From NCBI GenBank assembly GCA_965225945.1, contig CBDDBZ010000035.1, positions 256,001 to 320,000 on the forward strand: a DNA stretch of 64,000 bases. Direction: 5' to 3'. Position numbers and translations under genes: made by a program. Position 1 is the stretch's first letter. Every line of letters starts with the position of its first letter. The stretch comes from Alphaproteobacteria bacterium (lineage in GTDB: Bacteria; Pseudomonadota; Alphaproteobacteria; GCA-2731375). This document shows positions 16,893 to 62,673 of this stretch, one piece after another. Under the pieces are notes generated by a model that worked only from the letters and a program-made list of their open reading frames with translations, was not told where the DNA came from and ran no database searches.

Positions 16893-17001
16893 GACAAACT
16901 TGTGTCCAAGGAACCGGGTGCGATACACGGCGTCCAAATTTGACCCCCTGAGCCTGGCTAGTCCAAGTCACCTCGTTTTTGGGCGGACGAGGTGGTGGGG
17001 G

Positions 17002-35618: not shown

Positions 35619-37283
35619 TCAATCGTCGTCCGCCGCTTCCGCCGTCGTCGTGCCGTCATAGCCCCGGCGCCGATCCAACTCGATGCGGGCCGGGTCGCGC
35701 TCGCCCGGCGGCCCATAACCACCGCCACCCGGCGTCTTCACGTCCACCCAATCACCTGGCCGCAGCACATAGCCCTCGCCCTTGGAAAGGTGTTCCGGCA
35801 CCGTGCGGCGATTGCCTTGGCCGATCTCGATCTCGTTCACGGCGCCGGCCTCGCCGCCCAGCATGCCCGGCGGGCCGAAGCGACCGTGGTCCATCAAAAA
35901 CGACGCCTTGCCCTCGCCGCGCAACAGGCGGATCCGATAATCGACGCCGAAGCCGCCGCGATGGCGCCCCTGGCCGCCCGAGCCCTCGCGCAGCGCATAG
36001 CGCTCGAACAACAAGGGATAGTGCTGCTCCAGGATCTCGATCGGCTGGGTCTTGGAGATGCCGACCGAGGAGCAGCCGTTGGTCAGCCCGTCGGTCTCCC
36101 ACCAGCCGCCGTAGCCGCCGCCGGAGAAGAAATACATGATGTAGTCGCGATTCCCCTCGGGGTCGTGGCCGCCGAGTGCCAGGTTGCCGCTGGTGCCGGC
36201 GGGTGCTGCGAACATCCGCTCCGGGATCGCCTGGCCCATGGCACCGAACACCGCCTCCATGATCCGTTGCGCCACCTCCGCCGCGCAGCCGGCTACCGGG
36301 CGGGGATATTGGGCGTAGAGGAAGGTTGTGTCGGGCACCGGGATATGCAGCGGCTCGAAACAGCCGGCGTTGATCGGCACCTCGGGGAAGATGTGCTTGA
36401 TGGCGACGTAGACCGAGGACTGCGTCGTCGCCCAGACCGAGTTCATCGGCCCCCGGCAGGGCGGGCTGGAGCGGGAGAAGTCGAAGGTGATCTCGCCGCC
36501 CTCGATCCTCATGTCGAGGGCGATGTCGAGCGGCTCGTTCACCACGCCGTCGCTGTCGATATGGGCGGTGAAGGAATAGGTGCCGTCCGGCACCTCCGCG
36601 ATCCGCGCCCGCATCATTATGGCGGAGCGGGTCTTCAATTCCACGATTCCGGCGTCCACCGTCTCGGCGCCATGGCGGTCCAGAAGCGCGGTCAGCCGCT
36701 TCTCGCCGGTCTTGAGGGCGCCGATCTGGGCCCGGATGTCGCCGATCCGCTCCTCCGGCACGCGGATGTTGTTGAGGATGATGTCGACAATGTCCTGCAC
36801 GATTTCGCCGCGCCGCATCAGCTTCACCGGCGGCAGCCGGAGGCCTTCCTGCTGGATCTCCGTCGCCGTGGAGTTGAAGCCGCCGGGCACCATGCCGCCG
36901 GTATCCGGCCAGTGCCCAGTGTTCGAGAGCCAGCACCAGAGCCGGCCCCGGTAATAAAACGGCATCACCATCTTGACGTCCATCAGGTGGGTGCCGCCGA
37001 GATAGGGATCGTTCTGGATGATGATGTCGCCCGGCTCCAGGTCCCTCCGCCGCTCGATCACCGCTTGCGTCGCGAACTGCATGACGCCGAGGAAGATCGG
37101 CAGGCCCAGCTCGCCCTGGCTGATCATCTCGCCGGTGTCGCGGTGATAGATGCCGTTGGAGCGGTCGTAGGCCTCCGAGATCACCGGCGAAAACGACGTC
37201 TTCTCGTGCACCAGGTCCATCTCGCTGCAGACCTGGCGCAGGCCGTTCTCAATGACGGCGAGCGTGACCGGATCGAGTTCCAT
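35619..37283 (-). CDS. hyuB: Hydantoinase B / oxoprolinase subunit
   Basis: NDPYLGGTHL.D, QEGLRLPP, GSGG.GRHRGG.G, TPGGGGYG. Confidence 0.9.
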   Translation of the reverse strand: MELDPVTLAVIENGLRQVCSEMDLVHEKTSFSPVISEAYDRSNGIYHRDTGEMISQGELGLPIFLGVMQFATQAVIERRRDLEPGDIIIQNDPYLGGTHLMDVKMVMPFYYRGRLWCWLSNTGHWPDTGGMVPGGFNSTATEIQQEGLRLPPVKLMRRGEIVQDIVDIILNNIRVPEERIGDIRAQIGALKTGEKRLTALLDRHGAETVDAGIVELKTRSAIMMRARIAEVPDGTYSFTAHIDSDGVVNEPLDIALDMRIEGGEITFDFSRSSPPCRGPMNSVWATTQSSVYVAIKHIFPEVPINAGCFEPLHIPVPDTTFLYAQYPRPVAGCAAEVAQRIMEAVFGAMGQAIPERMFAAPAGTSGNLALGGHDPEGNRDYIMYFFSGGGYGGWWETDGLTNGCSSVGISKTQPIEILEQHYPLLFERYALREGSGGQGRHRGGFGVDYRIRLLRGEGKASFLMDHGRFGPPGMLGGEAGAVNEIEIGQGNRRTVPEHLSKGEGYVLRPGDWVDVKTPGGGGYGPPGERDPARIELDRRRGYDGTTTAEAADDD

Positions 37284-37635: not shown

Positions 37636-39687
37636 TCAGCCGCCGTCGACGGCGATGATCATGTTGCCGAATTCGTCGATAGCAGCGCTGGCGCCGGGGT
37701 CGACGAGGATGGTGGTGTCCGCCTGGACGACGATGGCGGGACCCTCGATTTCGTCGCCGGCCGCCAAACCGTCGCGCGCCAGGATCGGGGTCTCGACGAA
37801 GCCGTCCTCGAAATAGACCGGCCGAGTCGTGCCTGTGCCCGAGCCGCCGCCCGATTGGCCGCCCGCGCCGCCGCCGAGGCGGGCCAGGTCCAGCGCCGGG
37901 CGGCGGCCGAACACCGTGGTCCGGAGGTTGGCCAGGACCGGCACCATGTCCTCCAGCACGATCTCGAAGCGCTCCCGGTAGCGTTCCGCCAGACGCGCGG
38001 CGATTCGCTCGGGCGAAACGCCGGGGCCATCGATCACCATGCGAAAAACGTGGCTCTGGCCGCGGTAGAGCAGGTCCGCCTCGAACACCACCTCCACCGC
38101 TTCCGTCGCCACGCCCTCGGCGGCGATGGTCGCCCGCCCGCGCTCCGCCTGCTCGGCGAGGATGGCTTCGGCCTCGCCCGTGTCGACCTCGGCCAGCGGA
38201 CGCCAGAGGGTGGCGACATAGTCGTGGCGCAGGTCCGCCAGCACGCACCCCAAGGCCGAGGTGATGCCGGGAAAGCGCGGCACCAGCACCCTCGGGATGG
38301 CGAGCTCGCGGGCCAGCGCCACGGCATGCAGCGGCCCCGCGCCGCCGAAGGCGAAGAGGGCGAAGTCGCGCGGATCGTAGCCCTTCTCGATCGAGACCAG
38401 GCGGATCGCGGAGGCGAGCCGGTTGCCGGCGACGGCGAGGATGGCGGCGGCCGCGGCCACGGCGTCGAGGCCGAGGGGCGAGCCGACCTGGGCCAGCAGT
38501 GCCGCCTCGACCGCCCCCCCCGCCGCGCCGCCCTCGAGGCCGGCGAAGCCGGTCGGATCGACCCGCCCGAGAGCCAAGTTGGCGTCGGTCACCGTCACCC
38601 TATTCCCGCCCTTGGCGTAGCAGATCGGGCCCGGCTGGGCGCCCGCGCTCTCGGGCCCGACGCGGAGGATGCCGCCCTCGTCGACATGGGCGATCGAGCC
38701 GCCGCCGGCGCCGATGGTGTGGATGTCGACCATCGGCACCCTGACCGGCACGCCGTAGGCCAGGTCCTTCTCGGCCGAGATGGCGGGCTCGCCGCCCCGG
38801 ATCAGGCTGACGTCGAAGCTGGTGCCGCCCATGTCGCAGGCGATGAGGTCGGGGAAGCCGGATTGCGCGCCGATCCGGGCCGCCGCGATGGCGCCCGCGG
38901 CCGGGCCCGACATCACCGTCTGCACCGGCTGGCGGGCCGCCGCCGGCGCCGTCATGGTGCCGCCGTTGCCCTGCATCACCAGCAGCTCCCGGCCGTAGCC
39001 GGCAGCGTCCAGCCGTTCCGCGATACGGCCCAGATAGCGCGCCAGCACCGGCTGCACATAGGCGTTGACGGCGGCGGTGCTGCCGCGCTCGAACTCGCGA
39101 ACCTCGCTCAGAATCTCGCCGCTGGCGGTGACATAGTCGTTGGGCCAGACCTCGCGGGCGATGGCGTACGCGCGGCGCTCGTGCGCCGGGTTGGCGTAGG
39201 CGTGGAGGAAATGGATCACCACGGCCTCGGCGCCGAGCCGGATCAAGGTGCGAAGCGCGTCGCGCACCTCGTCCTCGTCGAGCGGCGTCACGATCCGGCC
39301 CTTGGCGTCCATCCGTTCCGCCACCTCGAGGCGGAGCTCGCGGTCGACCAAAGCCTCGAAGTGGCCGAACATGCCGTAATTGTTGGGCCGGGTGCGGCGG
39401 CCGAGTTCCAGGATGTCGCGGAAGCCCCGGGTGGTGATCAGGCCGACGCGGGCCCCCTTGCGCTCCAGCACCGAATTGGTGGCGATGGTGGTGCCGTGGA
39501 CGATCGCCGAAAGCTCGGGAAGTGCTGCCTGGGCGGCCTCCAGCGCGGCCATCACGCCCAACGATTGGTCCTCCGGCGTCGTCGCCACCTTGGCGACGCG
39601 GAAGCGGTCCGTCGTCGTATCGAGCACCACGAGATCGGTGTTGGTGCCGCCGACGTCGATTCCCGCCTGCCAATCGGTATCGCTCAC
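37636..39687 (-). CDS. hyuA: Hydantoinase A / oxoprolinase subunit
   Basis: IDVGGTNTD, HGTTIATN, DMGGTSFD, IGAGGGS, GGAGPLH. Confidence 0.9.
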   Translation of the reverse strand: MSDTDWQAGIDVGGTNTDLVVLDTTTDRFRVAKVATTPEDQSLGVMAALEAAQAALPELSAIVHGTTIATNSVLERKGARVGLITTRGFRDILELGRRTRPNNYGMFGHFEALVDRELRLEVAERMDAKGRIVTPLDEDEVRDALRTLIRLGAEAVVIHFLHAYANPAHERRAYAIAREVWPNDYVTASGEILSEVREFERGSTAAVNAYVQPVLARYLGRIAERLDAAGYGRELLVMQGNGGTMTAPAAARQPVQTVMSGPAAGAIAAARIGAQSGFPDLIACDMGGTSFDVSLIRGGEPAISAEKDLAYGVPVRVPMVDIHTIGAGGGSIAHVDEGGILRVGPESAGAQPGPICYAKGGNRVTVTDANLALGRVDPTGFAGLEGGAAGGAVEAALLAQVGSPLGLDAVAAAAAILAVAGNRLASAIRLVSIEKGYDPRDFALFAFGGAGPLHAVALARELAIPRVLVPRFPGITSALGCVLADLRHDYVATLWRPLAEVDTGEAEAILAEQAERGRATIAAEGVATEAVEVVFEADLLYRGQSHVFRMVIDGPGVSPERIAARLAERYRERFEIVLEDMVPVLANLRTTVFGRRPALDLARLGGGAGGQSGGGSGTGTTRPVYFEDGFVETPILARDGLAAGDEIEGPAIVVQADTTILVDPGASAAIDEFGNMIIAVDGG

Positions 39688-40115
39688 GCGTCTCTCCCGC
39701 TTCGTGGTGGGCGCATTCTGGCACCCGCGCGGCCCGCGCACCACCCGGCGGGCGCCGATGCCGAGGTGATCTTGGCCGACGTGAGTCGGGGCTCGGCGGT
39801 TTCCGCCGGCGGGCGGGTGGTAGCACCTCTCATGTCGGGAGCCGGGGGTGGAGTGGCCGTCGCCGGGCCCTGCCGGCCACGAGCGGGTGTCGCCAAATTT
39901 GACCGTTCAGGTTTCCCCAATATGTCGGCGGATCAGAGCAACTGAGCGACGATTCCAGCACCTCGAAGGCTTCGCTAGACTTCGACCCTGTCGGTGGGCA
40001 CGCGGAAATGTCCGGCGGCGATCGTCCCGGCGGACGTTGTCGATTGGCCAATGGCGACGATCTGGCAATCAGCACCACCCTGCGTTAATCTCATAGCGGT
40101 CAGGCGAGGGATGAC

Positions 40116-41906
40116 ATGGAGTTGCTCGCGCGCTTGGGACTCGAGCCCAACATATTCGACGGCCGCGTGGCCGTCGTCACGGGAGCGGCGCGCGGCATTG
40201 GTGAACAAGTGGCGCGTGGCCTGGCCAACCTCGGCGCCGACGTCGTCGTTCTCGATATTCTGCAGGAAGGCGAAGGGGTTGCCGCACAGATTCGGGGCAA
40301 TTCCCGCAACGCGACCTTCAAGCAGGTCGATCTCCGCGACATAGACGCTTTGGAACGCTTTCAAGACGAAGTCCTGTCCGAGCACGGCGCGGTCGACATC
40401 CTGGTAAACAACGCCTCCAAATTGCACTATGAGTATTTCCTAAACGCGCCCATCGATCTATGGGACGATCTGCACAATACCACGGTTCGTGCATCGACCT
40501 TTCTGATCCAGAAGTTTCTGCCGAAAATGCTCGAAAACCGCTTCGGCGTAATTTGCAACACCATCGCCGTCGATGTGTTGTCGCACGGCGCCCATTTCGC
40601 GGCCGCCATGGCGGGGCAAAAATCGATGGCCCTTTCGTTAGCCGGCGAAATTGGTAGCGAGAGCGGTGTCAGCGTATTCGGCTTCGCGCCAGGCGTTGTC
40701 GACACACCTCTGGTCCGCGACCTCGCGCCATTAGTGCCAAAATTCAGAGGCGTGACGCAGGAGGAATATATCAAGCATTTCGTGCAGAACCCGGGCTATG
40801 AAGGCTTGATGCCGGCGGAACACTGCGGTGCCAGTTACGTCTATTGCCTCGCGCATGCCAAAGCCTATCAAGGCCAGATCGCCGATGCTTTTCACCCCCT
40901 GATCAACCACGGAATCATTACGCCTGGGAATGACGAGGAGGAACTGCTCCGGGTCTCCGATAACGTCGATCCCTCGATCTGGCAAATTCACGACTACGTT
41001 CATGGCTTCTCGAACTTGAACCGAAATCTGGAGACGCGGATCGTCGAACGGACCAAGGAGCTGGAGGCGGCCAATCAAAAACTGGCTCAACAAAAACAGC
41101 ATATAGAGGATGTATCCACCAAGATATCCCGCTATTTGCCACGGCAGATCTATGAATCCATTTTTGCCGGAGAGATCGACACCGACATTGCGTCTCGGCG
41201 CCGAAACCTGACCATTTTCTTCTCCGACATCTGCGACTTTTCCCGCAAGACCGAACGGTTGGAGCCGGAGGCGTTGTCGGAGATTCTCAATAACTATTTC
41301 TCGGAGATGACCGAGATCGCTCGCGCCTACGGCGCGACCATCGACAAGTTCATTGGCGATGCGATTCTCATTTTTTTCGGCGACCCGAACACCGAGGGTC
41401 CAGTGAAAGATGGCGAAGCTTGCGTGGCCATGGCTATCGACATGCAACGCCGCATGGGCGCGTTACGGGACAGCTACGACCATCTTGGCTTGAACGAACC
41501 GCTGGAAATGCGCATTGGCATCAACAGCGGTTATTGCACGGTCGGAAACTTCGGTAGTTTCGAGCGCATCGACTACACAATCGTCGGCACCCCCGTGAAC
41601 ATCGCCTCGAGGCTGCAGGACGCCGGCGAGCCGGGTACGATCACAGTCTCTCGAAACACTCATGCGCTCGTCGCCGATCGGTTCGAGTTCGCTTCTCTGG
41701 GGCGTTTGCAGCTCAAGGGCATCGTGGACGAGGTCGATGCTTATCGAGTTCTGTTCGAGGCCGTGGAGGGCGCCGACGCGGCGACGACACCGGAGGGGCA
41801 GATGAGGGCATTGAAGGAGCGCCTCCGACGGCTCGACATCGACAAGCTTGGAGACGCGGAAAAGGATGAGTTGTTGAAATCCATGTCCAAGCTGCTCGGT
41901 CGTTGA
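40116..41906 (+). CDS. SDR-fold / coiled coil / class III adenylate cyclase fusion
   Basis: N-term VTGAARGIG, DILVNNA, PGVVDT; linker LETRIVERTKELE; cyclase FSDICDFS, DKFIGDA, DYTIVG.PVNIASRL. Confidence 0.88.
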   Translation: MELLARLGLEPNIFDGRVAVVTGAARGIGEQVARGLANLGADVVVLDILQEGEGVAAQIRGNSRNATFKQVDLRDIDALERFQDEVLSEHGAVDILVNNASKLHYEYFLNAPIDLWDDLHNTTVRASTFLIQKFLPKMLENRFGVICNTIAVDVLSHGAHFAAAMAGQKSMALSLAGEIGSESGVSVFGFAPGVVDTPLVRDLAPLVPKFRGVTQEEYIKHFVQNPGYEGLMPAEHCGASYVYCLAHAKAYQGQIADAFHPLINHGIITPGNDEEELLRVSDNVDPSIWQIHDYVHGFSNLNRNLETRIVERTKELEAANQKLAQQKQHIEDVSTKISRYLPRQIYESIFAGEIDTDIASRRRNLTIFFSDICDFSRKTERLEPEALSEILNNYFSEMTEIARAYGATIDKFIGDAILIFFGDPNTEGPVKDGEACVAMAIDMQRRMGALRDSYDHLGLNEPLEMRIGINSGYCTVGNFGSFERIDYTIVGTPVNIASRLQDAGEPGTITVSRNTHALVADRFEFASLGRLQLKGIVDEVDAYRVLFEAVEGADAATTPEGQMRALKERLRRLDIDKLGDAEKDELLKSMSKLLGR

Positions 41907-42291
41907 ACCCGCCGGGCCAAAGCTTGCCCGGAATACTCCCGCGCCAAGTGTCGCCTCGGTCGGGGATCGCCTGTCGGCCCCCTCTCGGGAAACGCCCGGA
42001 CCCGGAGGCGTTCTCGACCTCGATCGGGTGATTCCAGGTCTCGAACCGGCGGACGTTGGGCGTCGGTGGTGAACGCCCCGTCCCGCCGGGGCAGCCCTGG
42101 TCGATGCCGGTGTGGATGGTGGGGGGCGAGGGGTGCGCGAGGCGATAGGGTTGTGGGCTTCGAGCCGGCGCGCGCGCTCGTTTTGGCGAGCGACCGCGTT
42201 CATAATATGAACATCGAGGAGTTGCGCCATCGGCTTCGAGGCTGGAGAAGCCGGTGGCGGCGGGGGAATCGATGAAGCGCGGCGCCCTATC

Positions 42292-42432
42292 GTCGATTCG
42301 CGCGCCGCGTGAGAGGGTTTGGGGGCGGTGGACGCCTCGATCATGCCGGCGATTGTCGCCGGCAACACCAACGCGCCGGCGATCATGATCGGCGAGAAGG
42401 CGGCGGCGATGATCCTGGAGGACGCGGGGTAG
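42292..42432 (+). pseudogene. 3' remnant of a GMC oxidoreductase (choline dehydrogenase-like)
   Basis: 42328-42432 reads [34 protein letters not shown], the GMC C-terminal signature. Confidence 0.8.
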
Positions 42433-42517
42433 GGGGTGGTGCTCCGCGCAATCTACAAGATAGCATAGGGCCGCGCGCCGCATCGGCTGCGCATCGCGAC
42501 GGGATCAGGGAGCATCG

Positions 42518-44506
42518 ATGCCCGACCACAGTGATTTTGCGAACCTGATCTGGCAGATCGCCGATCTGCTGCGCGGCCCATACCGACCGCCGCAGTACGA
42601 GCGCGTCATGTTGCCGATGACCGTGCTGCGTCGCTTCGACTGCGTGCTGGCACCCACCAAGGCGAAGGTGCTGGCCGAACACGAGCGACGGAGAGGCGGA
42701 CGGCTCAACGACGAAGCGCTCGACCAAATGCTGAATCGGAGGGCCGAACAGCGCTTCCACAACCACTCGCCGCTCGACTTCGAGAAGCTGAAGGGCGACC
42801 CCGACAACATCGCGCCGCATCTGGTCAGCTACATCAAGGGTTTCTCGGCCAACGTCCGCACCATCTTTGACTTCTTCGAGTTCGAGAACGAAATCGAGCG
42901 GATGCGCGAGTCGAATATTCTCTATCTCGTCGTCTCGAATTTCTGCGACGTGAATTTGCACCCGGATGAGGTGCCAAACGAGCAAATGGGACTGATCTTC
43001 GAGAACCTGATCCGCCGGTTCAACGAGCTAGCCAACGAGACCGCCGGCGACCATTTCACACCCCGCGAGGTGATCCGGCTGATGGTCAACTTGTTGTTCA
43101 TCCAAGATGACGAACTGCTGGCGACGCCGGGCGCCGTACGCAAGCTGCTGGACCCCGCGTGCGGCACTGGCGGCATGCTGGCCGAGGCGCAGAGCTATCT
43201 GCGTGATCACCATGCGGCGGCCCAGTTATACGTCTACGGCCAGGATTACAACAAGCGCGCCTACGCCACCGCAGCCTCCGACATGCTGATGAAGCAAGTA
43301 GACCACAACGGGGGCGACAACAACGTGCGCTTCGGCGACAGCTTCACGGACGACAAATTTGCGCCGGAGACCTTCGACTACCTGCTGACCAACCCGCCGT
43401 TCGGCGTCGATTGGAAACGGCAGCGAAAGGAACTCCGCAACGAGCACGAACGGCTCGGCTTCGCCGGCCGCTTCGGTGCCGGGTTGCCACGCATCAACGA
43501 CGGATCGCTGCTGTTCCTTCTGCACATGATCAGCAAGTTCGAGCCGGTGCTGCCCGATCAGCACAAGCACGGATCGCGGCTCGCCATCGTCTTCAGCGGC
43601 TCGCCGCTATTCACCGGCGGTCCCGGCTCCGGTGAGAGCGACATCCGCAAGTGGATCATCGAAAACGACTGGCTCGAAGCCATCGTCGCCCTGCCGGAGC
43701 AGATGTTCTATAATACCGGCATCGGCACCTATGTCTGGATTGTCGCCAACCGCAAGGAACGGAATCGCAAGGGTAACATTCAGCTCGTCGACGCGCGCGA
43801 ATGCTACGTGGCGATGCGCCGTAGCCTCGGCAACAAGCGCCGCAAGATCGGCGAGAAGGAGGACCAGTGCGACCAGATAGCCGAGATCGTGCGGACCTAT
43901 GGTGGCTTCGCGCACGGCGACACCTCGAAAATATTCGACAACGCCGCTTTCGGCTACACCCGCGTCACCGTCGAGCGCCCGCTACGCCTCTGCTATCGGA
44001 TGACGGTCGACGATAAAGCACGCTCCCTCGACGCCTGCCCGCACCTCCTCGACGACGTTCAGGCAATCGACGAAGCGCTAGGCCGCGAGCCGCAACACGA
44101 CTGGAACGCCCTCTGGACGGGCATCGCCAACTTGCTGCGTAAACGTGGATCGCGTTGGAAAGCGCCGGAGCAGAGCCTCTTCCGCAGTGTTTTCACGCAT
44201 AAGGACCCGGAGGCGGAACCCGTCGACAAAGGGGGCCGAGACGGAGGCTACGAGCCCGATCCCGACCTGCGCGACTTCGAGAATGTGCCACTCAAAGACG
44301 GCATCGAGGCCTATTTCGAGCGCGAGGTGCTGCCTCACGTGCCCGACGCCTGGATGGACCGCGGTAAGGACAAGGTCGGGTACGAGATCAACTTCAATCG
44401 TCACTTCTACAAGTACACGCCGCCGCGGCCATTGGAGAAGATTGACGCGGACCTGAAGCGGGCGGAGGAGACAATTATGCGACTCTTACGTGAGGTTACG
44501 GAGTGA
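42518..44506 (+). CDS. hsdM: Type I R-M methyltransferase subunit
   Basis: IWQIADLLRG, FTPREVI, DPACGTGGML, NPPF, FYNTGI.TY, GYEINF.RHFY. Confidence 0.95.
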   Translation: MPDHSDFANLIWQIADLLRGPYRPPQYERVMLPMTVLRRFDCVLAPTKAKVLAEHERRRGGRLNDEALDQMLNRRAEQRFHNHSPLDFEKLKGDPDNIAPHLVSYIKGFSANVRTIFDFFEFENEIERMRESNILYLVVSNFCDVNLHPDEVPNEQMGLIFENLIRRFNELANETAGDHFTPREVIRLMVNLLFIQDDELLATPGAVRKLLDPACGTGGMLAEAQSYLRDHHAAAQLYVYGQDYNKRAYATAASDMLMKQVDHNGGDNNVRFGDSFTDDKFAPETFDYLLTNPPFGVDWKRQRKELRNEHERLGFAGRFGAGLPRINDGSLLFLLHMISKFEPVLPDQHKHGSRLAIVFSGSPLFTGGPGSGESDIRKWIIENDWLEAIVALPEQMFYNTGIGTYVWIVANRKERNRKGNIQLVDARECYVAMRRSLGNKRRKIGEKEDQCDQIAEIVRTYGGFAHGDTSKIFDNAAFGYTRVTVERPLRLCYRMTVDDKARSLDACPHLLDDVQAIDEALGREPQHDWNALWTGIANLLRKRGSRWKAPEQSLFRSVFTHKDPEAEPVDKGGRDGGYEPDPDLRDFENVPLKDGIEAYFEREVLPHVPDAWMDRGKDKVGYEINFNRHFYKYTPPRPLEKIDADLKRAEETIMRLLREVTE

Positions 44507-45773
44507 ACGTGCTCAATAACGTTCAGCGACTTCGGCTCAAGTACGCCGCGACCATCAACGATGACGTACTGGGTGAAGAGACAGAGTCCGACTACGAGCT
44601 ACAGTATGTTGACATCGGCAACGTCGATTCCTCTGGCACAATCGATGAAATCGTAACGTATCGCTTCGCCGATGCACCCAGTCGAGCTCGGAGGCGAGTT
44701 CGTGATGGCGACGTCGTTGTTTCTTGCGTGCGAACCTACCTCCAAGCAATTGCACCGATTCAGACTCCCCCAAAAAACCTGATCGTATCAACCGGGTTCG
44801 CCGTAGTGCGTCCACGCGGTGACGTATTTGATGCTGGCTACTGTAAATATGCGTTGCGTGAACCCGCTTCCCTAGCGGAAGTGGAGATGCCCTCTGTCGG
44901 AGTCAGCTACCCAGCAATCAATGCTTCCGACCTCGCTGATATTGCGGTTTATTTGCCGCCGGTTCACCGCCAGTGTAGCATTGCCGACTTCCTCGACCGC
45001 GAGACGACTCTGCTGGATGCGCTAATGGCAGCGAAGGAACGACTACTTGAGATATTGGTTGAGAAGCGTCGGGCGCTCATCACACGCGCCCTTACCCGCG
45101 GCCTTGATCCCGACGTCCCTCTACGAGACTCCGGCAATCTCTCGCTCGGCGAAATTCCAAAGCATTGGAAAGCAACCCGGTTAAAGTTTTTCACCGAGGT
45201 TCGTGGCGGTTTGACTCTTGGTAAGAACTATAGCGCGGCAGAACTTGTTGAGTTTCCATACTTGCGTGTGGCCAATGTCCAGGACGGACACGTCGATCTC
45301 TCCGATGTCGCAACCGTTATGATCCCGCAATCGGAAGCAGATTCATGTTTATTGGCCGTCGGAGATGTTCTGATGAACGAAGGTGGAGACGCTGACAAGT
45401 TGCGCCGTGGCTGCATTTGGTACGGTAAAATTACCCCGTGTCTTCACCAGAATCACGTTTTCACGGTTCGTCCAAGGCACGTTCGATTCGATTGGCTGAA
45501 CGCATGGATTTTCACGAACGTTCCGAAGGTTTTTTTCAATCCCGAGCAAAACAATCGACGAATTTAGCATCGATTTCAGCGACCAACCTCAAAGAACTAC
45601 CGATACTACTCCCTACTGAAAATGAGCAACCCGCGATCCTCCAGCACATCGATGCGGAAACGACGAAGCTCGACACGTTGTACACTACAACAGAACGTGC
45701 CCTGGCACTGCTCAAGGAACGCCGCTTCGCCATCATCGCTGCGGCTGTTACTGGGCAGTTGGAGATTACGTGA
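44503..45773 (+). pseudogene. hsdS: Type I R-M specificity subunit, frameshifted at a T7 tract
   Basis: TRD1, central IADFLD...EKRRALITRALTRGL, GEIPKHW, TRD2; tail QSRAKQSTNLASI...LKERRFAIIAAAVTGQ is in another frame after T7 at 45530-45536. Confidence 0.88.
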
Positions 45774-45777
45774 CGCA

Positions 45778-47266
45778 ATGAGAATCCGTGAAACTCACTC
45801 TTCGCAACTATCGGGTCCATGCTGATCCCCAACCCTTTCAGTTCGCGGACCGCTTCACTGTCGTCGCCGGCGTCAACGGAACCGGCTGTGGCGGCTGTTC
45901 ACCGTCTGCACATGCAGATCGCCCCGAACCCGTTCCCCCATCGAAGGCTCACCCCGAGCGCGGCGGCGCACGGTGGGTAGCTCGCGCCGCCGTCGGAGAC
46001 CAAACCACCGGGTCGAGGGCAGCTGAGCGCCGCCGCATCGACCCTGGGCAGCACCGCGCTGACATGAGAACCGGTACCTGCTCGCGCACGTGCCTTGCGC
46101 CCCAGCCCGCGCGCGCCCTTGCTCTCCAGGACGTAGTCTCGTCCGCTTTCCCCAAAAGTGTCGCCGGCGCGCAGCGGCTATCGTTCAATAAAGACCTCGG
46201 ACGTGAATTTTGGCGCAACGTTCGCCGAGTTAGGCATGAAACCCTTGCCGTAAATTGCGCCGGGATTCCGCTTGAATATAAGCTGATCTACGATCCGGAG
46301 CGCCACCGGGTCTCGCCGACCAAACTACCAGCTGCGGTCATGCGCGAGGTAAGGAACGCTTACGGCGACCCTACCCGCGCCGACGACGCGGCGGCGCTGG
46401 CGGTCTATTATACGACGGATCGAGCGGGGTACCGACTTCCCAAGAAGCTACCGGTGGAGGTGCCGCACGGGCAGGCCGCCGCCTATACGGGCGCGCTCTT
46501 AAATCGCACCGTTAATTTTCGCGACTTTATGGCGCGATACCGAAGCGCGATTGTACTCGAACGTGAGACGCTCCGAGACAACCCGAGCTATCTCGGGGGC
46601 CACGCCGTCGAAGCAATATCGAGAGCCCTCACCACATTTCTCGGCGGATTCGAGAATCTACGTATTGAGGAAGAGCCGCTTCGCCTCTTGGTCGACAAAG
46701 CAGGAGTACCGCTAGATCTCTCTCAATTGTCAGAAGGGAAGCGCTCGTTTCTGGCGCTGGTGTGCGACTTGGGGCGGCGGCTGGCACTCGCAAATCCAAT
46801 GCTCGACAATCCGCTGCACGGCGCCGGCGTAGTTCTGATCGATGAACTGGAGTTGCACCTACATCCCGAGTGGCAACGCGAGGCCCGCGAGAAACTCCAC
46901 GAGGCATTCCCCAACATCCAGTTCATTGCGACCACTCACTCACCGTTCGTAATTCAGTCCCTACGACCGGGTGAGCTGATCAACCTCGACCCGGACGAAT
47001 TTAGCGAGTACGCAGACAAGAGCATCGAGGATATCGCCGAGAACGTGATGGGTGTGGATTTGCCACAAAAGAGCGAACGTTACCTCCAGATGATGAATGC
47101 GGCTGAGGCGTATTTTCGTCTGCTTCGAGAACCAGGCGCATTGACCGAAACCGCGGAGCAACGACTGAATGAGCTTGCGGCGCCGTTCAGCGACGACCCA
47201 GCGTTCCAGGCACTACTAAAACTTGAGCGCGAAGCACGGCGCGGAGGCGGCGATGGGACCCGTTGA
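45778..47266 (+). pseudogene. ABC/AAA ATPase (PtuA/Septu-like) with degraded 5' half
   Basis: LSQLSEG, VVLIDELELHLHP and ATTHSP intact; Walker A ends at GVNGTG with no K; frameshift after ATG45778. Confidence 0.8.
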
Positions 47267-47936
47267 CAAAGGGGCGGCACCTCGTGTGTACGCAAATTAC
47301 CAAGATGCTGGGTCGGACCTTCAAAAACGGCTCGGCGACTACTGCAGCTATTGCGAGTGGCAGATCGAGACCTACCTCGCCGTCGAGCACATCCAGCCAA
47401 AGTCACACATGCTCCTCCTGGGCACGAGTTGGTCGAACTTTCTCTTGGCATGCGTCAACTACAATTCGAACAAAGGCAGCACCCCGGTCAACTTGTCGGA
47501 CTACTTCTGGCCCGACGTAGACAATACTCTACGCGCGTTCGAGCACGTCCCCGGTGGCTTGATTCGGCCACATCCGACCTTGGAGCCTCACTTGACGGCG
47601 AAGGCTCATGCAACAATCAGTTTGGTTGGGCTCGATCGTGATCCGGGCAATCCAGGAAGAGACCCCACGTTGCGCGACAATCGCTGGTATCGGCGACTTC
47701 GGGCCTGGCAGGTGGCCCAAAGATGTCGGAACAATGTCGCTGCGCAAGACACGGCTGAGATGCGTGACACTGTTGTGATGGTAGCGACCGGTCGTGGCAT
47801 TTTCTCGATTTGGTGCACCGTGTTTGCCGGCGACGCCGACATGCGCCGACGATTGCGGGAGGCGTTTGTAGGTACTCACGGAGGATCATTCGATGCGAAC
47901 GAAGACCTTGTACCCCGCGATGGGGGACAGGTGTAG
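47253..47936 (+). CDS. HNH endonuclease (PtuB-like)
   Basis: RLGDYCSYCE, VEHIQPK, WSNFLLACVNYNSNK; second CxxC reads CxxY; overlaps ATPase stop. Confidence 0.82.
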   Translation: MGPVDKGAAPRVYANYQDAGSDLQKRLGDYCSYCEWQIETYLAVEHIQPKSHMLLLGTSWSNFLLACVNYNSNKGSTPVNLSDYFWPDVDNTLRAFEHVPGGLIRPHPTLEPHLTAKAHATISLVGLDRDPGNPGRDPTLRDNRWYRRLRAWQVAQRCRNNVAAQDTAEMRDTVVMVATGRGIFSIWCTVFAGDADMRRRLREAFVGTHGGSFDANEDLVPRDGGQV

Positions 47937-47938
47937 CT

Positions 47939-50900
47939 ATGAGCGCGCCTAGACGCAACGAAGCGGCCTTCGAGACCGTTATCGAAGCGTACCTGTTACA
48001 AAACGGGTACGTGCCTGTCGCCCGCGAAGTTTTCGACCGCGAACGCGCGATCTTTCCGGAGACGGTACTCGCCTTCATCCGCGAGACCCAGCCCAGGGAG
48101 TGGGCCAAGCTGGAGGCCCTGCACGGTGACGGGACCGGCGCGCAGATACTGACGGATCTCTGCAAGTGGATGGACGCAAACGGCTCGCTCACCACGCTCC
48201 GCCACGGCTTCAAGTGCTATGGCCGCACGCTTCACTTGGGATTCTTCAAGGCGGCGCACGAGCTGAACCCCGATCTGGAGGCGCGCTACGCCGCGAACCG
48301 CTTGGGGATTACCCGACAATTGCGCTTCTCGCCGCGCTCTCGAAAGTCGCTCGACGTTGCGTTGAGCCTGAACGGTATCCCGATCGCCACTCTGGAGCTG
48401 AAGAACCAGCTCACGGGCCAGACGATCGAGGACGCGCGCCGACAATACAAGCAGGACCGCGACCCGCGTGAGCCGATCTTCGAGTTCAAGCGACGGTCGC
48501 TCGTGCATTTCGCTGTCGACACCGACGCGGTGCTAATGACGACGCGGCTGGCCGGCCCGGCGACCCACTTCCTGCCGTTCAACAAGGGCCATGACGGTGG
48601 TGCGGGCAACCCGCCCGACCCGGAGGGGCGCGGCTATCGCACGGCCTATCTCTGGGAGGACGTCTTGGAGCGCGACAGTTTGCTGGAGCTGCTTGCGCGC
48701 TTCATTCACTTGCAGACCGAGGAAAGGCGCGACGACCAGGGCCGCAAGGTGAAGAAGGAAAGCATGATCCTCCCGCGTTACCACCAGCTGGTGGCCGTGG
48801 GCACACTGGTGGACTCGGCGCGGCGTGAGGGTGTTGGGCACAACTACCTAATCGAGCACTCCGCGGGCAGTGGCAAAAGCAACACCATCGGTTGGATGAC
48901 TCATCGGCTGGCATCGCTGCACGACGCTGCGAACCAACGGGTGTTCGACAGCGTGATCGTGACCACCGACCGCGTCGTGCTGGACCAGCAATTGCAGGAC
49001 ACGATCTATCAGTTCGAGCACAAGCGCGGCGTGGTCCAGCGGATCGACGAAAGCTCGCGACAATTGGCGGAGGCGCTGGAAAGCGCGGTGCCGGTGATCG
49101 TCACCACCCTGCAGAAGTTTCCGTTCGTCTCGAAGCATCTGGCCAAGATGGCCGAGGAGCGCGGCGCGGGCGGCGACGGCACCTTGCCGACACGCCGGTG
49201 CGCGGTGGTCATTGATGAGGCGCACAGCTCACAAGGCGGCGAGACGGCCACGGACCTGAAGGAGGTCCTCGGAGGGAAGGGGCTGAGGGAGGAGGCCGTG
49301 CGTTACGCGGTGGAAGAAGATCTCGAAGACATGGAGGAGCTGTTCCGCAGCATGGCTAAGCGCGGCCGGCAAGCGAACCTGAGTTTCTTCGCGTTCACCG
49401 CAACGCCGAAACACAAGACACTTGCCGTATTCGGCCGCGATGGAGAGCCCGTGCATCGGTACACGATGCGTCAAGCCATCGAGGAAGAGTTCATCCACGA
49501 CGTCCTCAAGCACTACACGACCTTCGAAACGTATTTTCGATTGCTCAAGGCGTGCGAAGACGATCCCAACGTAGAACGAAAGAAAGGCGCGAAAGCGCTG
49601 GCGCGCTTCATGAAGTTGAACCCACATAATATCGCCCAAAAGACCGAGGTGATAGTAGAGCATTTCAACACGATGACGCGTCACAAGATCGGCGGTCGTG
49701 CGAAAGCGATGGTCGTGACCGGTTCGCGCCTTGAAGCAGTGCGCTACAAGCAGAGCATCGACCAGTACATCCGGCGAAAGGGATATCCGATCAAGACGCT
49801 TGTGGCCTTCTCCGGCATCGTGCAGGACGACAAGCTCGCCGGCGTGGCCTACACCGAAGAAGGCATGAACCAAGGCATCCGAGAGAAGGAGCTGCCGGAG
49901 AAGTTCGCCACCCCGGAGTATCAGGTACTGCTCGTGGCCGAGAAGTACCAGACCGGCTTCGACCAGCCGCTCTTGCACACGATGTACGTGGACAAACGGC
50001 TCGCCGGCATCCAGGCGGTGCAAACTCTGTCGCGGTTGAATCGCACCCACCCACTCAAGGAAGACACCTTCGTCCTCGACTTCGTGAACGACCGCGAGGA
50101 TATCCGCGACGCCTTCAAGACCTATTACGAAGGCGCCGAGATGGGTGACGAGGTCGACCCGGCGCGCATGTATCAAGTCAAGGGCGAGCTGGACGCGTCG
50201 GGCATTTACCTCGCAGAGGAGGTGGAGCGGTTCTGCTCGATCTATTTCAAGCCCAAGCAGCGGCAGAGCCCGGCCGACCACCAGGCGATGAACGCGATGC
50301 TCGATCCAGGGGTCGCCCGTTTCGCCAAGTTCCAGATCGAGGAAGAGGAGGAGGCGGAGCTATGGCGCGGCAAAGCGCGGGCTTTTCATAACCTTTATGG
50401 CTTCCTGAGCCAGGTGATCCCGTATCAGGACTCGGACCTGGAGAGACTTTACGTGTTCCTCCGCTATCTAGCCGCGAAACTGCCCAAACGGCGCGATGGC
50501 CCCGCCTACCAGTTCGATGACGAGGTTAGGCTCGAATACTACCGCTTGCAAAAGATCAGCGAAGGTTCGATCGGCCTCGGCGACGGCCGGGCTCGACCGC
50601 TCGACGGCCCGACCGAGGTAGGTTCTGGCCTAGCGCGTGAGCAACCGGTTCCCTTGTCACAGCTAATCGACCTGGTGAACGAGCGTTTCGGCACGGACTT
50701 CAATCAGGCAGATCAACTTTTCTTCGATCAGATCGTCGAAGCGGCAATGGCGGACGACGGTCTGCGGCAGGCGGCATCCGTAAATCCGGGCGACAAGTTC
50801 GAGCTTGTCTTCAAAAACCTGCTTCAGACACTATTCGTCGAGCGGATCGATCAGAACGAGGAAATATTCATCCGTTTCATGAACGATTCGTCGTTTCGTG

Positions 50901-50980
50901 AACTGGTTACATCCTGGCTAGCATCCGAGGCGTATCGCAAGCTACGCGAGGACCAACGTCAGGATGAACCGGTAGATTGA
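47939..50980 (+). CDS. hsdR: Type I R-M restriction subunit
   Basis: D..LSLNGIPIATLELK nuclease motif, GSGKS, DEAH, FTATP, TGFDQP, QTLSRLNR. Confidence 0.95.
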   Translation: MSAPRRNEAAFETVIEAYLLQNGYVPVAREVFDRERAIFPETVLAFIRETQPREWAKLEALHGDGTGAQILTDLCKWMDANGSLTTLRHGFKCYGRTLHLGFFKAAHELNPDLEARYAANRLGITRQLRFSPRSRKSLDVALSLNGIPIATLELKNQLTGQTIEDARRQYKQDRDPREPIFEFKRRSLVHFAVDTDAVLMTTRLAGPATHFLPFNKGHDGGAGNPPDPEGRGYRTAYLWEDVLERDSLLELLARFIHLQTEERRDDQGRKVKKESMILPRYHQLVAVGTLVDSARREGVGHNYLIEHSAGSGKSNTIGWMTHRLASLHDAANQRVFDSVIVTTDRVVLDQQLQDTIYQFEHKRGVVQRIDESSRQLAEALESAVPVIVTTLQKFPFVSKHLAKMAEERGAGGDGTLPTRRCAVVIDEAHSSQGGETATDLKEVLGGKGLREEAVRYAVEEDLEDMEELFRSMAKRGRQANLSFFAFTATPKHKTLAVFGRDGEPVHRYTMRQAIEEEFIHDVLKHYTTFETYFRLLKACEDDPNVERKKGAKALARFMKLNPHNIAQKTEVIVEHFNTMTRHKIGGRAKAMVVTGSRLEAVRYKQSIDQYIRRKGYPIKTLVAFSGIVQDDKLAGVAYTEEGMNQGIREKELPEKFATPEYQVLLVAEKYQTGFDQPLLHTMYVDKRLAGIQAVQTLSRLNRTHPLKEDTFVLDFVNDREDIRDAFKTYYEGAEMGDEVDPARMYQVKGELDASGIYLAEEVERFCSIYFKPKQRQSPADHQAMNAMLDPGVARFAKFQIEEEEEAELWRGKARAFHNLYGFLSQVIPYQDSDLERLYVFLRYLAAKLPKRRDGPAYQFDDEVRLEYYRLQKISEGSIGLGDGRARPLDGPTEVGSGLAREQPVPLSQLIDLVNERFGTDFNQADQLFFDQIVEAAMADDGLRQAASVNPGDKFELVFKNLLQTLFVERIDQNEEIFIRFMNDSSFRELVTSWLASEAYRKLREDQRQDEPVD

Positions 50981-51689: not shown

Positions 51690-52912
51690 CACAGTACACG
51701 ACTCGTTCATGCTGGCTTTGGCCTGGGCACCTGGACTGGTGGTTTTCCGGGGACGAGGAAACGAATCAGCTCAATGGCTTGACGCCTGTCGATAGGATTG
51801 ACGAGCTGTCGCCTTATCCACTCGAAACCGTATCGGAAGATGGATTTTGCCATCCTTTTGTGGGTTTTGAGGCGGATCGGCTCGGCCTCGTGGAGCCAAT
51901 CGCCGACTTTGTGCGCCCAGCAGAAGGTGATGGAAAGGACGGCGGTGAGCTTGGAGATGCGCTCCGGGTCGGTCATGTGGGTGTCTTCGAGGTTGAAGCC
52001 ACGGGTTTTCAAGGCGGCGAAGAGGGTCTCGATTTGCCAGCGCTGGGCGTAGATGGCCAAGGCCTCCTCGGGCGCGTCGTTGGTCACGACGATCAACAGT
52101 TCGCCGGTCTTGAGATGGAGCGCGGCGACGAAGACGGGCCTGGCCTTGGGTTTTCTGGCCTCCGAGAGGCGCCTGGCGTTGGAGAGGATGCGGCTTTCCC
52201 CGGGTTTGAGGTCGCGAAACAGCTCCCTCGCCTTGACCATGCGACCACGCGTGTTGGCGATCTTGATGTTGGATCGGATGCGGATGTGAAAGGGGATGGC
52301 CTTTTCCTGCAACCATGCCAGCCAGGCGTCGCCGATGAATTCCCGGTCGGCCAGGAGGCTGGCGATCTTGTCGACCCCGAAGAGCCGGAGGACGTGTTCG
52401 AGGATCGCGATCCGCTCCTTGGTATTGGAATTGCCCGCCTTGTCGAGCACCCGCCAGCACACGGGAATGGCGATGGCGCGGTTGACGATGCCGATCATCA
52501 AGATGTTGACGTCGCGGCGACCCAGCCGCCAGTTGGTCCGGTCCATGGTCAGCCGCCACGGCCCCGCCTGGAGCCCCATCATCGCGACCAGGAACTCGGC
52601 GAGGCGATCGTAATCGAAATCGACTTGCTCGAAAAACCGTTGCAGGCGCCGATAGTTGGAGCTGGATCGCGCGCGCCCCGGAAAGTGGCAGGCCAAGTGA
52701 GAGAGGTTCACCGTCCGGGCGACGAACACGCCGAAGACCAAGACGCAAAGGCTCTCCAGACGGCTCTTGCGAAAGGCGAAGCCGCATCGTAGCGTCTCAC
52801 GCAGGGCGTTGATCGGGTTGTCTCGCATGATTTCCCTCTTGACTCGTCGTGGAGTGAATCGGGAATCCTACAACCTTTTCAACGTCCTACGTAAATGCCG
52901 TCGTGTACCATG
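51690..52912 (-). mobile_element. IS4-family element, copy 2 (intact, 1223 bp)
   Basis: Ends CACAGTACACGAC / GTCGTGTACCATG; 9-bp duplication AACGGCTCG (51681-51689, 52913-52921). Confidence 0.95.
51707..52828 (-). CDS. IS4-family DDE transposase
   Basis: MDRTNW, LADREF, YAQRWQIETLFAALK (YREK motif). Confidence 0.95.
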   Translation of the reverse strand: MRDNPINALRETLRCGFAFRKSRLESLCVLVFGVFVARTVNLSHLACHFPGRARSSSNYRRLQRFFEQVDFDYDRLAEFLVAMMGLQAGPWRLTMDRTNWRLGRRDVNILMIGIVNRAIAIPVCWRVLDKAGNSNTKERIAILEHVLRLFGVDKIASLLADREFIGDAWLAWLQEKAIPFHIRIRSNIKIANTRGRMVKARELFRDLKPGESRILSNARRLSEARKPKARPVFVAALHLKTGELLIVVTNDAPEEALAIYAQRWQIETLFAALKTRGFNLEDTHMTDPERISKLTAVLSITFCWAHKVGDWLHEAEPIRLKTHKRMAKSIFRYGFEWIRRQLVNPIDRRQAIELIRFLVPGKPPVQVPRPKPA

Positions 52913-61461: not shown

Positions 61462-62673
61462 GTGTCCCGATTCCGAAGTTCGCATGATTTTCGCCTGCTG
61501 TTCAGCGATTTCGATTGTTCGGAGGCAGAAGCGCTGATCCTCAATCAATGAAGTGACGGTTTACTTCATGATGGCGCCGAGGATGTCATCGGCGGATTTG
61601 GTCCATTTGAAGGGTTTGGGGTTCTGGTTTGTCGTGTCGATGTAGTCGAGGATGGTGCGCTCCAACTCCTTGGTGGAGCGATGGACGCCGCGCCTGATCT
61701 GCTTGTCGGTCAGCAGCCCGAACCAGCGCTCGACCTGGTTGAGCCAGGAGGCGCTGGTGGGTGTGAAATGGGCCTGCCAGCGCGGCCGTTTGGCGAACCA
61801 GTCGCGGATCGCCTTGGTCTTGTGGGTCCCGTAGTTGTCCATGACGATGTGGATGTCGAGATCAGCAGGGACGTTCGCCTCGACGAGGTCGAGGAATTTG
61901 CGGAACTCTCGGGCCCGATGGCGCGGGAAACATTTGCCGATGATCTCTCCCGTGGCGATGTCGAGGGCCGCGAAGAGAGAGGTCGTGCCGTGGCGCTTGT
62001 AGTCGTGGCTGCGCCGCTCCGCCTGCCCGGGGCGCATCGGCAAGAGGGGCTGGGAACGGTCCAAGGCCTGGATCTGGCTCTTTTCGTCGACACAGAGAAC
62101 CAGGGCACGATCCGGCGGCGCCAAATACAGACCGACGATGTCGCGGACCTTCTCCACGAAGAAGGGATCGCTCGACAGCTTGAAGGTCTCCGAGCGATGC
62201 GGCTGCAAGCCGAAGGCCCGCCAGATGCGATGAATGGTCGAGGGCGCGTGGCCGCTCGCCCGCGCCATCGAGCGAAGGCTCCAATGGGTCGCGTCCGGCG
62301 GCGTCTCTTCCAGCGTCAGCCGGACCGCTTCCGCGATGGCGTCATCGCCGATTTGACGCGGCGCGCCGGGGCGGGGTTCGTCGTACAGACCGTCGAGGCC
62401 CTCCGCCGCATAGCGGCGACGCCACTTGCCCACGGTGTCCGCGCTCGCCTCGAGACGAACGGCGATCTCCTTGTTCTCCAACCCTTCCGCCGCCGCCAAG
62501 ACGATCCGAGCCCGCCGCGCAAGCCCCTGCGACGTCTTGCGACGACGAGACAGCGCCTCCAATTCGGCGCGCTCGTCATCGCTCAAAGAGATCGTCACCG
62601 CCACTCTCGCCATCAATCGCGCCTCCTGAAAACAAATAGAGATATAATCATATCAATTTATCGATCAGGACAC
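61462..62673 (-). mobile_element. IS630-family element
   Basis: Ends GTGTCCCGAT / ATCAGGACAC with TA (CTAG context) on both sides. Confidence 0.92.
61561..62616 (-). CDS. IS630 transposase, C-terminally truncated by a 33-nt insert
   Basis: [28 protein letters not shown]; tail QRFCLRTIE...SESGH* resumes in frame at 61536. Confidence 0.9.

Follow-up and report, generated by a model that had tools for sequence, protein, structure and literature searches.

A class IIIb adenylate cyclase joined to a pseudo-enzyme dehydrogenase domain: a candidate nicotinamide dinucleotide sensor in an alphaproteobacterium

What does a dehydrogenase fold do at the N-terminus of an adenylate cyclase once its catalytic residues have been replaced? 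The question is raised by one gene in a 64,000-nucleotide stretch of an alphaproteobacterial genome (GenBank assembly GCA_965225945.1, contig CBDDBZ010000035.1, positions 256,001 to 320,000; the whole stretch is called the window below), in which a short-chain dehydrogenase/reductase (SDR) fold is joined through a signalling helix (S-helix) to a class III cyclase. An earlier model reading of the letters alone (the sequence-only reading) had described the gene as one uninterrupted open reading frame (ORF) of 596 residues, which our analysis confirms, and had proposed a soluble cyclase gated by nicotinamide adenine dinucleotide, phosphorylated or not (NAD(P)(H)), or by a metabolite, with a conceivable role in phage defence. 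We favour, at a probability of roughly 0.6, the reading that this protein, the SDR-cyclase, is a soluble homodimeric class IIIb adenylate cyclase, the activity of which would be set by an N-terminal pseudo-enzyme SDR domain that has probably retained nicotinamide dinucleotide binding; the defence role is very improbable.

Fold, catalytic positions and cofactor motifs of the SDR half

The full Rossmann fold claimed by the sequence-only reading is borne out by both profile and structure comparison. Pfam assigns adh_short to residues 17-203 (E 7e-33, 114 bits), and an AlphaFold2 model made with 58 homologues as input (mean predicted local distance difference test score (pLDDT) 84.4, predicted template modelling score 0.56) reaches pLDDT values of about 84-98 in the SDR range. 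Foldseek aligns the N-terminal half of this model to classical SDRs with template modelling (TM) scores of 0.83-0.87 over about 250-260 columns, with 3-hydroxybutyrate dehydrogenase 6zzs, alcohol dehydrogenase 6qhe and FabG among the matches. As the best structural matches are classical SDRs, the N-terminal half is a complete classical SDR and not of the NmrA type; PF05368 (NmrA) is not among the Pfam matches to the protein at E up to 0.1. The 25 best NCBIfam SDR models all score below their curated cut-offs (top score 104 bits vs. 303), the protein atlas returns generic SDR clusters only (score 0.90), and the homologues carry no database names other than “SDR family NAD(P)-dependent oxidoreductase” or “class 3 adenylate cyclase/NAD(P)-dependent dehydrogenase”.

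The SDR motifs of the ORF are TGAARGIG (residues 22-29), D72-L73, NNA (98-100, in NNAS), PGVVDT (192-197) and HFAAAM (160-165), the last of which stands where an active enzyme has YxxxK. In the HMMER alignment to E. coli FabG (1i01) the query AHFAAAMAG lies opposite ANYAAAKAG; therefore, F161 takes the position of the catalytic Tyr and M165 that of the Lys, as the sequence-only reading had claimed. Two further losses had escaped it: the catalytic Asn position reads T123, and the catalytic Ser position reads A151 in the alignment to 3ftp, or I150 in that to 1i01. As judged by alignment, the whole tetrad is swapped in this protein (Asn to T123, Ser to A151, Tyr to F161 and Lys to M165), and the SDR half is, by canonical criteria, dead as a catalyst. 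Compared with FabG and 3-hydroxybutyrate dehydrogenase, the protein shares the complete fold, TGxxxGxG, NNA, PGxxxT and a predicted α4/α5 dimer, but it reads Thr-Ala-Phe-Met instead of Asn-Ser-Tyr-Lys.

Among 5.8 billion clustered proteins we found 44 full-length homologues, 592-602 residues long and with 49-80% identity (clade 1), and a second group (clade 2) of which 14 aligned fusions have 533-593 residues and 35-43% identity; together they form the set of 58 aligned cyclase fusions used here. The homologues begin with MELLxRLxL, as the SDR-cyclase does. In clade 1 the Tyr position is Phe in 43 of 44 proteins (Tyr in P0026), and the Lys position is Met, Leu or Ile in all 44. The sequence-only reading had made conservation of the loss of YxxxK its own test, and the loss holds among these close homologues; it does not extend to clade 2, in which Asn, Tyr and Lys are kept in 14/14 and only the Ser position is changed (Ala 14/14). 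Clade 2 also differs in its output: 13/14 have a cyclase of the Lys/Asp subclass and a linker that is 12 residues shorter, and the remaining protein, P0061, keeps YxxxK but has a IIIb cyclase. The pairwise identity in clade 1 is 0.61 for the SDR core, 0.67 for the C-terminal part of the SDR, 0.67 for the cyclase and 0.24 for the connector; the SDR half is thus conserved as well as the cyclase half and is not a decaying relic.

What has been conserved in the SDR half points to the cofactor. G23, G27, G29, D47, D72, L73, N98, N99, A100, P192, G193 and T197 are invariant in 58/58 aligned fusions, and the Ser position holds Ala in 50 and Gly in 8 of them. In SDRs an acidic residue after strand 2 (here D47) points to NAD(H) over NADP(H), and the Thr of PGxxxT holds the nicotinamide carboxamide. 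NAD(H) binding, the nature of the signal and the direction in which the cyclase is regulated are our inferences; NAD(H) is a likelier dinucleotide than NADP(H), and a metabolite resembling a substrate may also occupy the old active site.

Use of a dehydrogenase fold for regulation instead of catalysis, here proposed from sequence comparison, has precedents: NAD(P) sensing through a Rossmann fold is presented as the unifying feature of the regulators NmrA, HSCARG (NMRAL1), CtBP and MAT2B (PMC3793261). The SDR-cyclase differs from all four in that they are separate proteins that bind partner proteins, whereas here the fold is covalently fused through a signalling helix to an enzyme. NmrA and HSCARG moreover belong to the atypical NmrA-like group and the SDR half described here is classical; the parallel to NmrA and HSCARG drawn by the sequence-only reading therefore stands for function, as analogues, and falls as a relationship.

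The cyclase, the signalling helix and a predicted dimer

The C-terminal half appears to be an intact catalyst. Pfam assigns Guanylate_cyc to residues 361-543 (E 3.1e-26, 92.5 bits vs. a cut-off of 21.9), and the closest solved chain is P. aeruginosa CyaB 3r5g (E 2.7e-58; TM 0.95 and root-mean-square deviation 1.2 over 190 columns, 48% identity). The motifs FFSD (with D371), DKFIGD (K411 and D415) and NIASR (N495 and R499) supply the two metal-binding Asp residues, D371 and D415, the substrate Lys K411 and the transition-state residues N495 and R499, all of which are kept in 58/58 aligned fusions. The sequence-only reading had named these five correctly; the Asp that it took to select ATP (in RIDY) is D486, which varies among the 44 close homologues (D 38, E 5, H 1), and the canonical position is T488, which aligns with the Thr of CyaC and CyaB and is Thr in 44/44. 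The defining mark of class IIIb is the replacement of the substrate-binding Asp by Thr (PMC2613629). By this alignment the cyclase half belongs to class IIIb with the Lys/Thr substrate pair K411/T488, and with its residues intact the protein should produce cyclic AMP (cAMP).

Our comparison places the SDR-cyclase beside CyaB of P. aeruginosa, CyaC of Spirulina and CyaB1 of Anabaena, which have the same metal Asp pair, Lys/Thr pair and Asn/Arg residues, and among the class IIIb cyclases in general, which are of the homodimeric type with all catalytic residues on one chain. The input of P. aeruginosa CyaB is a membrane MASE2 domain. The SDR-cyclase has instead a soluble pseudo-SDR input: the highest 19-residue Kyte-Doolittle mean in the 596-residue protein is 1.19, and no membrane segment is therefore expected, in agreement with the sequence-only reading. 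Other cyclases with the same helix-plus-cyclase cassette have HAMP, PAS_7 or PF11845 as input, and the C-terminal stretch up to residues 594-596 is likewise matched by cyclases with different N-termini. According to PMC2613629, inorganic carbon elicited a response from every prokaryotic class IIIb cyclase that had been tested by 2009; by analogy, the SDR-cyclase may also answer to CO2 or bicarbonate.

The coiled coil that the sequence-only reading placed before the cyclase is recovered as a long helix (residues 286-338) in the AlphaFold2 model; it includes LNRNLETRIVERTKELEAANQKL at residues 300-322 and, between the SDR and cyclase domains, the ERT signature E311-R312-T313. In PMC1592074 the S-helix, which links input to output in signalling proteins, is defined as some 40 helical residues with an ERT signature at the centre. 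The SDR-cyclase resembles the S-helix proteins of Anantharaman, Balaji and Aravind (2006) in having an ERT helix at fixed spacing between an input and a cyclase, kinase, PP2C or GGDEF output. The terms “dehydrogenase” and “Rossmann” do not occur in that paper (PMC1592074), which names no such input domain. The spacing is strict: the ERT Thr (T313) and the first metal Asp (D371) are 58 residues apart in 47/47 IIIb fusions in which the motif was located (5 further IIIb fusions did not match the search pattern), and 46 residues apart in 53/57 Lys/Asp cyclase fusions; ahead of the helix, lengths differ by up to 11 residues.

We modelled two copies of residues 1-345 with NAD, which was included but unscored. 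The dimer model scored 0.85, compared to 0.00 for the best of three controls; among proteins of solved structure, 20 of 30 pairs and 1 of 23 single chains attain this mark. At least 70% of contacts agreed between the three runs, with a partner pLDDT of at least 86. The modelled interface consists of residues 107-136 and 153-180, i.e. the two long SDR helices with M165 included, and of residues 285-290 at the start of the signalling helix. As many SDR dimers of this type have been solved, the score may reflect likeness to known structures, and the model supports rather than shows that the SDR half forms an α4/α5 dimer.

These features suggest how the halves could be coupled. The SDR half would no longer be able to catalyse hydride transfer; ligand occupancy or redox state would alter the SDR dimer, the interface of which would be made of the long helices α4 and α5; the parallel signalling helix of fixed length would relay the change; and the helix would position the two cyclase domains relative to each other and so set the rate of cAMP synthesis. 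Helix α5 carries the former Tyr and Lys positions and would thereby combine active-site wall and dimer interface in one helix.

The module in other proteins and the loss of its catalytic residues

Is the SDR half an input domain, or does it merely hold two cyclase chains together? The same module occurs in front of other outputs. An exhaustive HMMER search over 1.84 billion representatives and a separate search with residues 1-320 alone returned proteins that match the SDR half and the helix only, at 37-46% identity over about 320 residues. By Pfam, their outputs are SpoIIE/PP2C (P0193 and P0299), HisKA-HATPase (P0292 alone, and P0245, P0249 and P0281 with REC domains), PAS-kinase-REC (P0285), a GHKL ATPase of which only the ATPase domain is present (P0286) and GGDEF (P0289). 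All these fusions have in common the loop NPGYEGLMP and the stretch YHGQxADPFxPL, followed by NRxLExRIxxRTxEL, and the PGxxxT and NPGY loops are kept across all fusion types. In metagenomes, a scan with the sequence around NPGY retrieved 80 loci; among 79 host ORFs, 32 have a cyclase, one a kinase with REC, one SpoIIE and 45 no known output (5 of these are cut at a contig end). In one 399-residue protein (P0303) the module and S-helix lead not to a known output domain but to a short Cys-rich tail, LPICSSCKKIRDD...HGLCPDC. The recurrence with several unrelated outputs supports the view that the SDR module acts as an input domain.

An SDR half that serves as a dimerization scaffold only and senses nothing, with any regulation acting at the catalytic domain, e.g. 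through CO2 or bicarbonate, is the alternative that survives best, and we consider it unlikely. It would account for the predicted dimer with its classical helix interface, as class III cyclases need dimerization, and it would sit well with the inorganic-carbon response of the tested class IIIb cyclases. However, a scaffold has no need for cofactor motifs kept in 58/58 fusions, nor for PGxxxT and NPGY loops kept across fusion types; one module serves four kinds of output; and an ERT helix with strictly fixed spacing marks regulated coupling (PMC1592074).

The catalytic positions show how far each branch of the family has moved away from an enzyme. For this survey, stored proteins and metagenome ORFs were aligned to a hidden Markov model of the module; there were 206 matches, of which 190 span the tetrad and 186 are non-identical, and the motif GGG[D/E]DNNA is present in 169 of these 186 modules. 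Forms that have no output or are cut read [N/D]-S-Y-K in 53/62, and the other nine are fragments of fusion-type sequences. The Lys is absent in 54 of 112 cyclase fusions, the tetrads being TAFM (38), TGFM (8), TAFL (3) and TAYM, TAFI, TALM, VAFM and AAFM (one each); in these 54 the Asn position is always Thr, Val or Ala, and the cyclase is of the Lys/Thr type in all 51 that are readable, three being cut short before the position. The other 58 cyclase fusions read NAYK (57) or NSYK (1), and their substrate position is Asp in 57 (55 with the full Lys/Asp pair, two with Arg at the Lys position). In kinase fusions, Tyr has become Met in 6/7 with the Lys kept (MSASK; the set includes P0245, P0249, P0281, P0285 and P0292, as well as L117 5003-7264), a route of decay apart from that of the cyclase clade. 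SpoIIE, GGDEF and Cys-tail forms mostly keep the tetrad (4/5).

A FastTree phylogeny of 183 modules (three were dropped for gaps) separates a Lys-less clade (58 tips, support 1.0), a Tyr-to-Met clade (6 tips, support 0.975) and a Ser-less clade (60 tips and one intact, support 0.985). All fusion types fall in a single clade of 129 tips (support 0.787), which is nested among stand-alone intact forms when the tree is rooted on P0312, an assumed root. Catalytic decay follows signalling use, by different routes in different clades, and the family forms a natural enzyme-to-sensor series: an intact tetrad, Ser lost, Tyr changed to Met, and all four residues lost. Five stand-alone relatives of 428 residues (L111, L124, L130, L136 and L142) have an intact Ser-Tyr-Lys and a helical C-terminal extension and lie on contigs with a guanine-plus-cytosine (GC) content of 0.28-0.34.

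The survey also bears on the thought that the SDR half is still redox-active through non-canonical residues and that the fusion merely co-localizes two activities. We regard such a bifunctional enzyme as highly improbable. Its fold is complete and well conserved, Y228 of the NPGY loop is invariant, and position 160, next to the former Tyr, is Tyr or His in 38/58 aligned fusions; but T, A, F and M at the tetrad positions are incapable of acid/base action or carbonyl polarization, no Lys stands at +4 of Y/H160, and an ERT signalling helix is not the way in which metabolic enzymes are joined. NPGY is no replacement for the tetrad either, as it is equally invariant in relatives with a normal tetrad.

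Many input domains are known for class III cyclases, histidine kinases and diguanylate cyclases. The sequence-only reading knew of no characterized protein with this architecture, and neither an SDR-cyclase nor an SDR-kinase sensor was found in the open full-text literature, outside which most subscription journals lie; by term, no SDR input domain is described in a signal-transduction census (PMC1183210) or in a review of sensory inputs to cyclic di-GMP (c-di-GMP) signalling (PMC8846402). A classical SDR in this place is most likely an input domain new to the well-known, modular class III cyclases, and it points to a wider and so far undescribed family of pseudo-SDR sensors. More tentatively, and with the odds somewhat against it, the SDR-like module could be an undescribed cytoplasmic sensor family derived from classical SDRs that reads NADH/NAD+ or a cofactor-adjacent metabolite and, through the S-helix, controls outputs of the cAMP, phosphorelay, PP2C and c-di-GMP kinds, as a pure ligand sensor in the Lys-less clade; cAMP would then report the redox state of the cell directly in these marine and sponge-associated bacteria. 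Were the module to bind NAD(H), it would give bacteria a modular sensor of redox state or of a metabolite with a role like that of Rex or NmrA, wired directly to second-messenger synthesis, and the SDR-cyclase would be a candidate part for NADH-responsive cAMP switches.

Distribution and surroundings of the gene

Several points weigh against the reading of the SDR half as a dinucleotide sensor. The first concerns the ligand. The Lys of YxxxK in active SDRs also holds the nicotinamide ribose; with this Lys lost, NAD affinity may be reduced or changed. The preference for NAD over NADP would depend solely on D47, the acidic residue after strand 2, and the ligand could be something else entirely. 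The distant cyclase clade has its Asn, Tyr and Lys intact, and there turnover might contribute to the signal. The root of the module tree is an assumption, and the neighbours of the stand-alone relatives give no clue to a substrate, the only pattern being a divergent TetR gene at 5/5 low-GC loci.

The gene is also rare and patchy. Among 40 related genomes G019 alone has the fusion (73% identity), and that copy (L088 1498-3336, minus strand) contains one in-frame TAA that divides it into ORFs of 232 and 361 residues; it is a pseudogene or an assembly error. The fusion is also missing from two genomes of the same genus, and in a class-wide sample none of 400 genomes contains the module at E up to 1e-45, a result that stands for rarity in the sample and not for absence, as five candidates per genome were scored. 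On plasmids, none of 75 matches covers at least 80% of the protein; the cyclase cassette alone matches. A profile scan of genome contigs with generic patterns gave 78 loci, none of which matches the SDR motifs before residue 244; 77 start at residue 270 or later, and the scan thus yielded no gene contexts of use. The gene is present in DNA-type runs of four organisms and in runs labelled sponge metagenome and marine sediment metagenome. Expression evidence is weak: contigs that show 0-1 differences from the gene fall within it, at 40442-40683, 40654-40816, 40904-41054, 41062-41212 and 41549-41743, and come from three metatranscriptome runs labelled as RNA in two studies, the RNA status of a fourth run being a guess. 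As such contigs may reflect DNA carry-over and give neither strand nor level, they are compatible with transcription but do not show it, and the lack of cover over most of the neighbouring restriction-modification (R-M) island in these runs carries no weight.

The location of the gene had suggested to the sequence-only reading a sensor of phage-induced NAD depletion. The gene does lie within 0.6 kb of a defence operon and does have a lower GC content, as stated there: 0.57, vs. 0.65 for the window and 0.67-0.72 for the hydantoinase genes (0.71 vs. 0.89-0.92 at third codon positions). Low GC does not tie it to the island, however: the same genome has a second full-length SDR-cyclase elsewhere (L087 9714-11519, minus strand, i.e. 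G000:C31:78722-80518; 60% identical) with an equally low GC of 0.565, which makes low GC a trait of the gene rather than a mark of the R-M island. That second copy is flanked by Mutator-family and Mu/rve transposase genes. Nor is the neighbourhood conserved, which the sequence-only reading had proposed to check. In clade 1 (five metagenome loci and G019) the neighbours are FlhA/FlhF, solute-binding proteins with a PAS/GAF kinase and a receiver, a TPR protein, another cyclase, a PAS protein and an amidohydrolase; no R-M or defence genes stand beside these six loci, and the neighbours at 10 clade-2 loci are equally mixed.

A defence-linked cyclase, be it of the Pycsar type or a sensor of phage-induced NAD+ depletion working with the type I R-M/Septu island (HsdM, HsdS, PtuA, PtuB and HsdR), is the least probable of the explanations: PycC models in PADLOC hit residues 313-520 (best E 1.3e-27) and the island begins close downstream, but the match reflects the class III fold shared with PycC and covers the cyclase half only, the Lys/Thr pair is that of an ATP-using class IIIb cyclase, no gene for a cyclic-nucleotide-binding effector of the Pycsar type lies within the flanks, a hydantoinase operon on the other strand upstream and a GMC oxidoreductase remnant downstream frame the gene, the paralogue sits between transposases, the homologues have unrelated neighbours, and viral contigs hold 0 relatives of the SDR-cyclase. 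A link to the island is not supported, and its nearness looks coincidental.

Table 1. Features of the SDR-cyclase gene and its neighbours (positions in the window).
Feature	Position	Strand	Basis or remark
Whole gene: candidate pseudo-SDR sensor, S-helix, class IIIb adenylate cyclase	40116..41906	+	ORF, 596 aa, ATG start, uninterrupted
Shine-Dalgarno-like GAGGGA	40104..40109	+	6 nt before ATG
Classical SDR fold, residues 15-268	40158..40919	+	Pfam adh_short, AlphaFold2, Foldseek
Gly-rich dinucleotide-binding motif TGAARGIG, residues 22-29	40179..40202	+	G23, G27, G29 invariant 58/58
T123 at catalytic Asn position	40482..40484	+	FabG alignment
A151 at catalytic Ser position	40566..40568	+	3ftp alignment
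F161-A-A-A-M165 replacing YxxxK	40596..40610	+	FabG alignment, family alignment
Variable low-confidence connector, residues 269-290	40920..40985	+	Clade-1 pairwise identity 0.24; pLDDT <50 at 275-279
Signalling helix, residues 286-338, with E311-R312-T313	40971..41129	+	AlphaFold2 helix, ERT signature
Class IIIb cyclase catalytic domain, residues 361-546	41196..41753	+	3r5g CyaB match, invariant catalytic residues
Two C-terminal helices, residues 559-595	41790..41900	+	AlphaFold2 model; identity 0.38 (weakly conserved)
Hydantoinase B	35619-37283	other strand	Upstream
Hydantoinase A	37636-39744	other strand	Upstream
GMC oxidoreductase 3' remnant	42289-42441	+	Last ~50 codons; between cyclase and hsdM
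HsdM	42518-44506	+	Starts 611 bp downstream of SDR-cyclase
HsdS	44503-45567	+	
PtuA	45788-47266	+	
PtuB	47223-47936	+	
HsdR	47810-50980	+	
DDE transposase	51707-52828	-	After the R-M/Septu island

The features of the gene and its surroundings are collected in Table 1. A promoter scan found no σ70-like site, and a terminator scan found a single terminator-like site, which lies inside the gene on the other strand; both scans are uninformative in a high-GC genome. The cyclase domain is matched at about 20 places in the genome, and just past the end of the window (G000:C35:320745-321469) there is a class III cyclase that matches residues 300-545 at 46-49% identity.

Positions 42289-42429, between the SDR-cyclase and hsdM, correspond to the final 50 residues of a GMC gene of 592 codons on contig C25 (L182), with 72% amino-acid identity, and at the nucleotide level 42316-42441 is 93.7% identical to the end of that intact gene. 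Pfam gives no match to the 39-residue ORF alone; the GMC identity was obtained from the paralogue. The remnant looks like a recombination scar.

The type I R-M operon (42518-50980; GC 0.53-0.61) carries the Septu pair between hsdS and hsdR. A tRNA scan of the window found none, hence no tRNA-linked island boundary. The region is rich in mobile elements, as the window holds five transposase or insertion-sequence-type genes (5196-6107, 16900-19228, 19263-20189, 51707-52828 and 61561-62616), the types being rve_3, an IS21-like Mu-transposase/IstB pair, two DDE_Tnp_1 and DDE_3.

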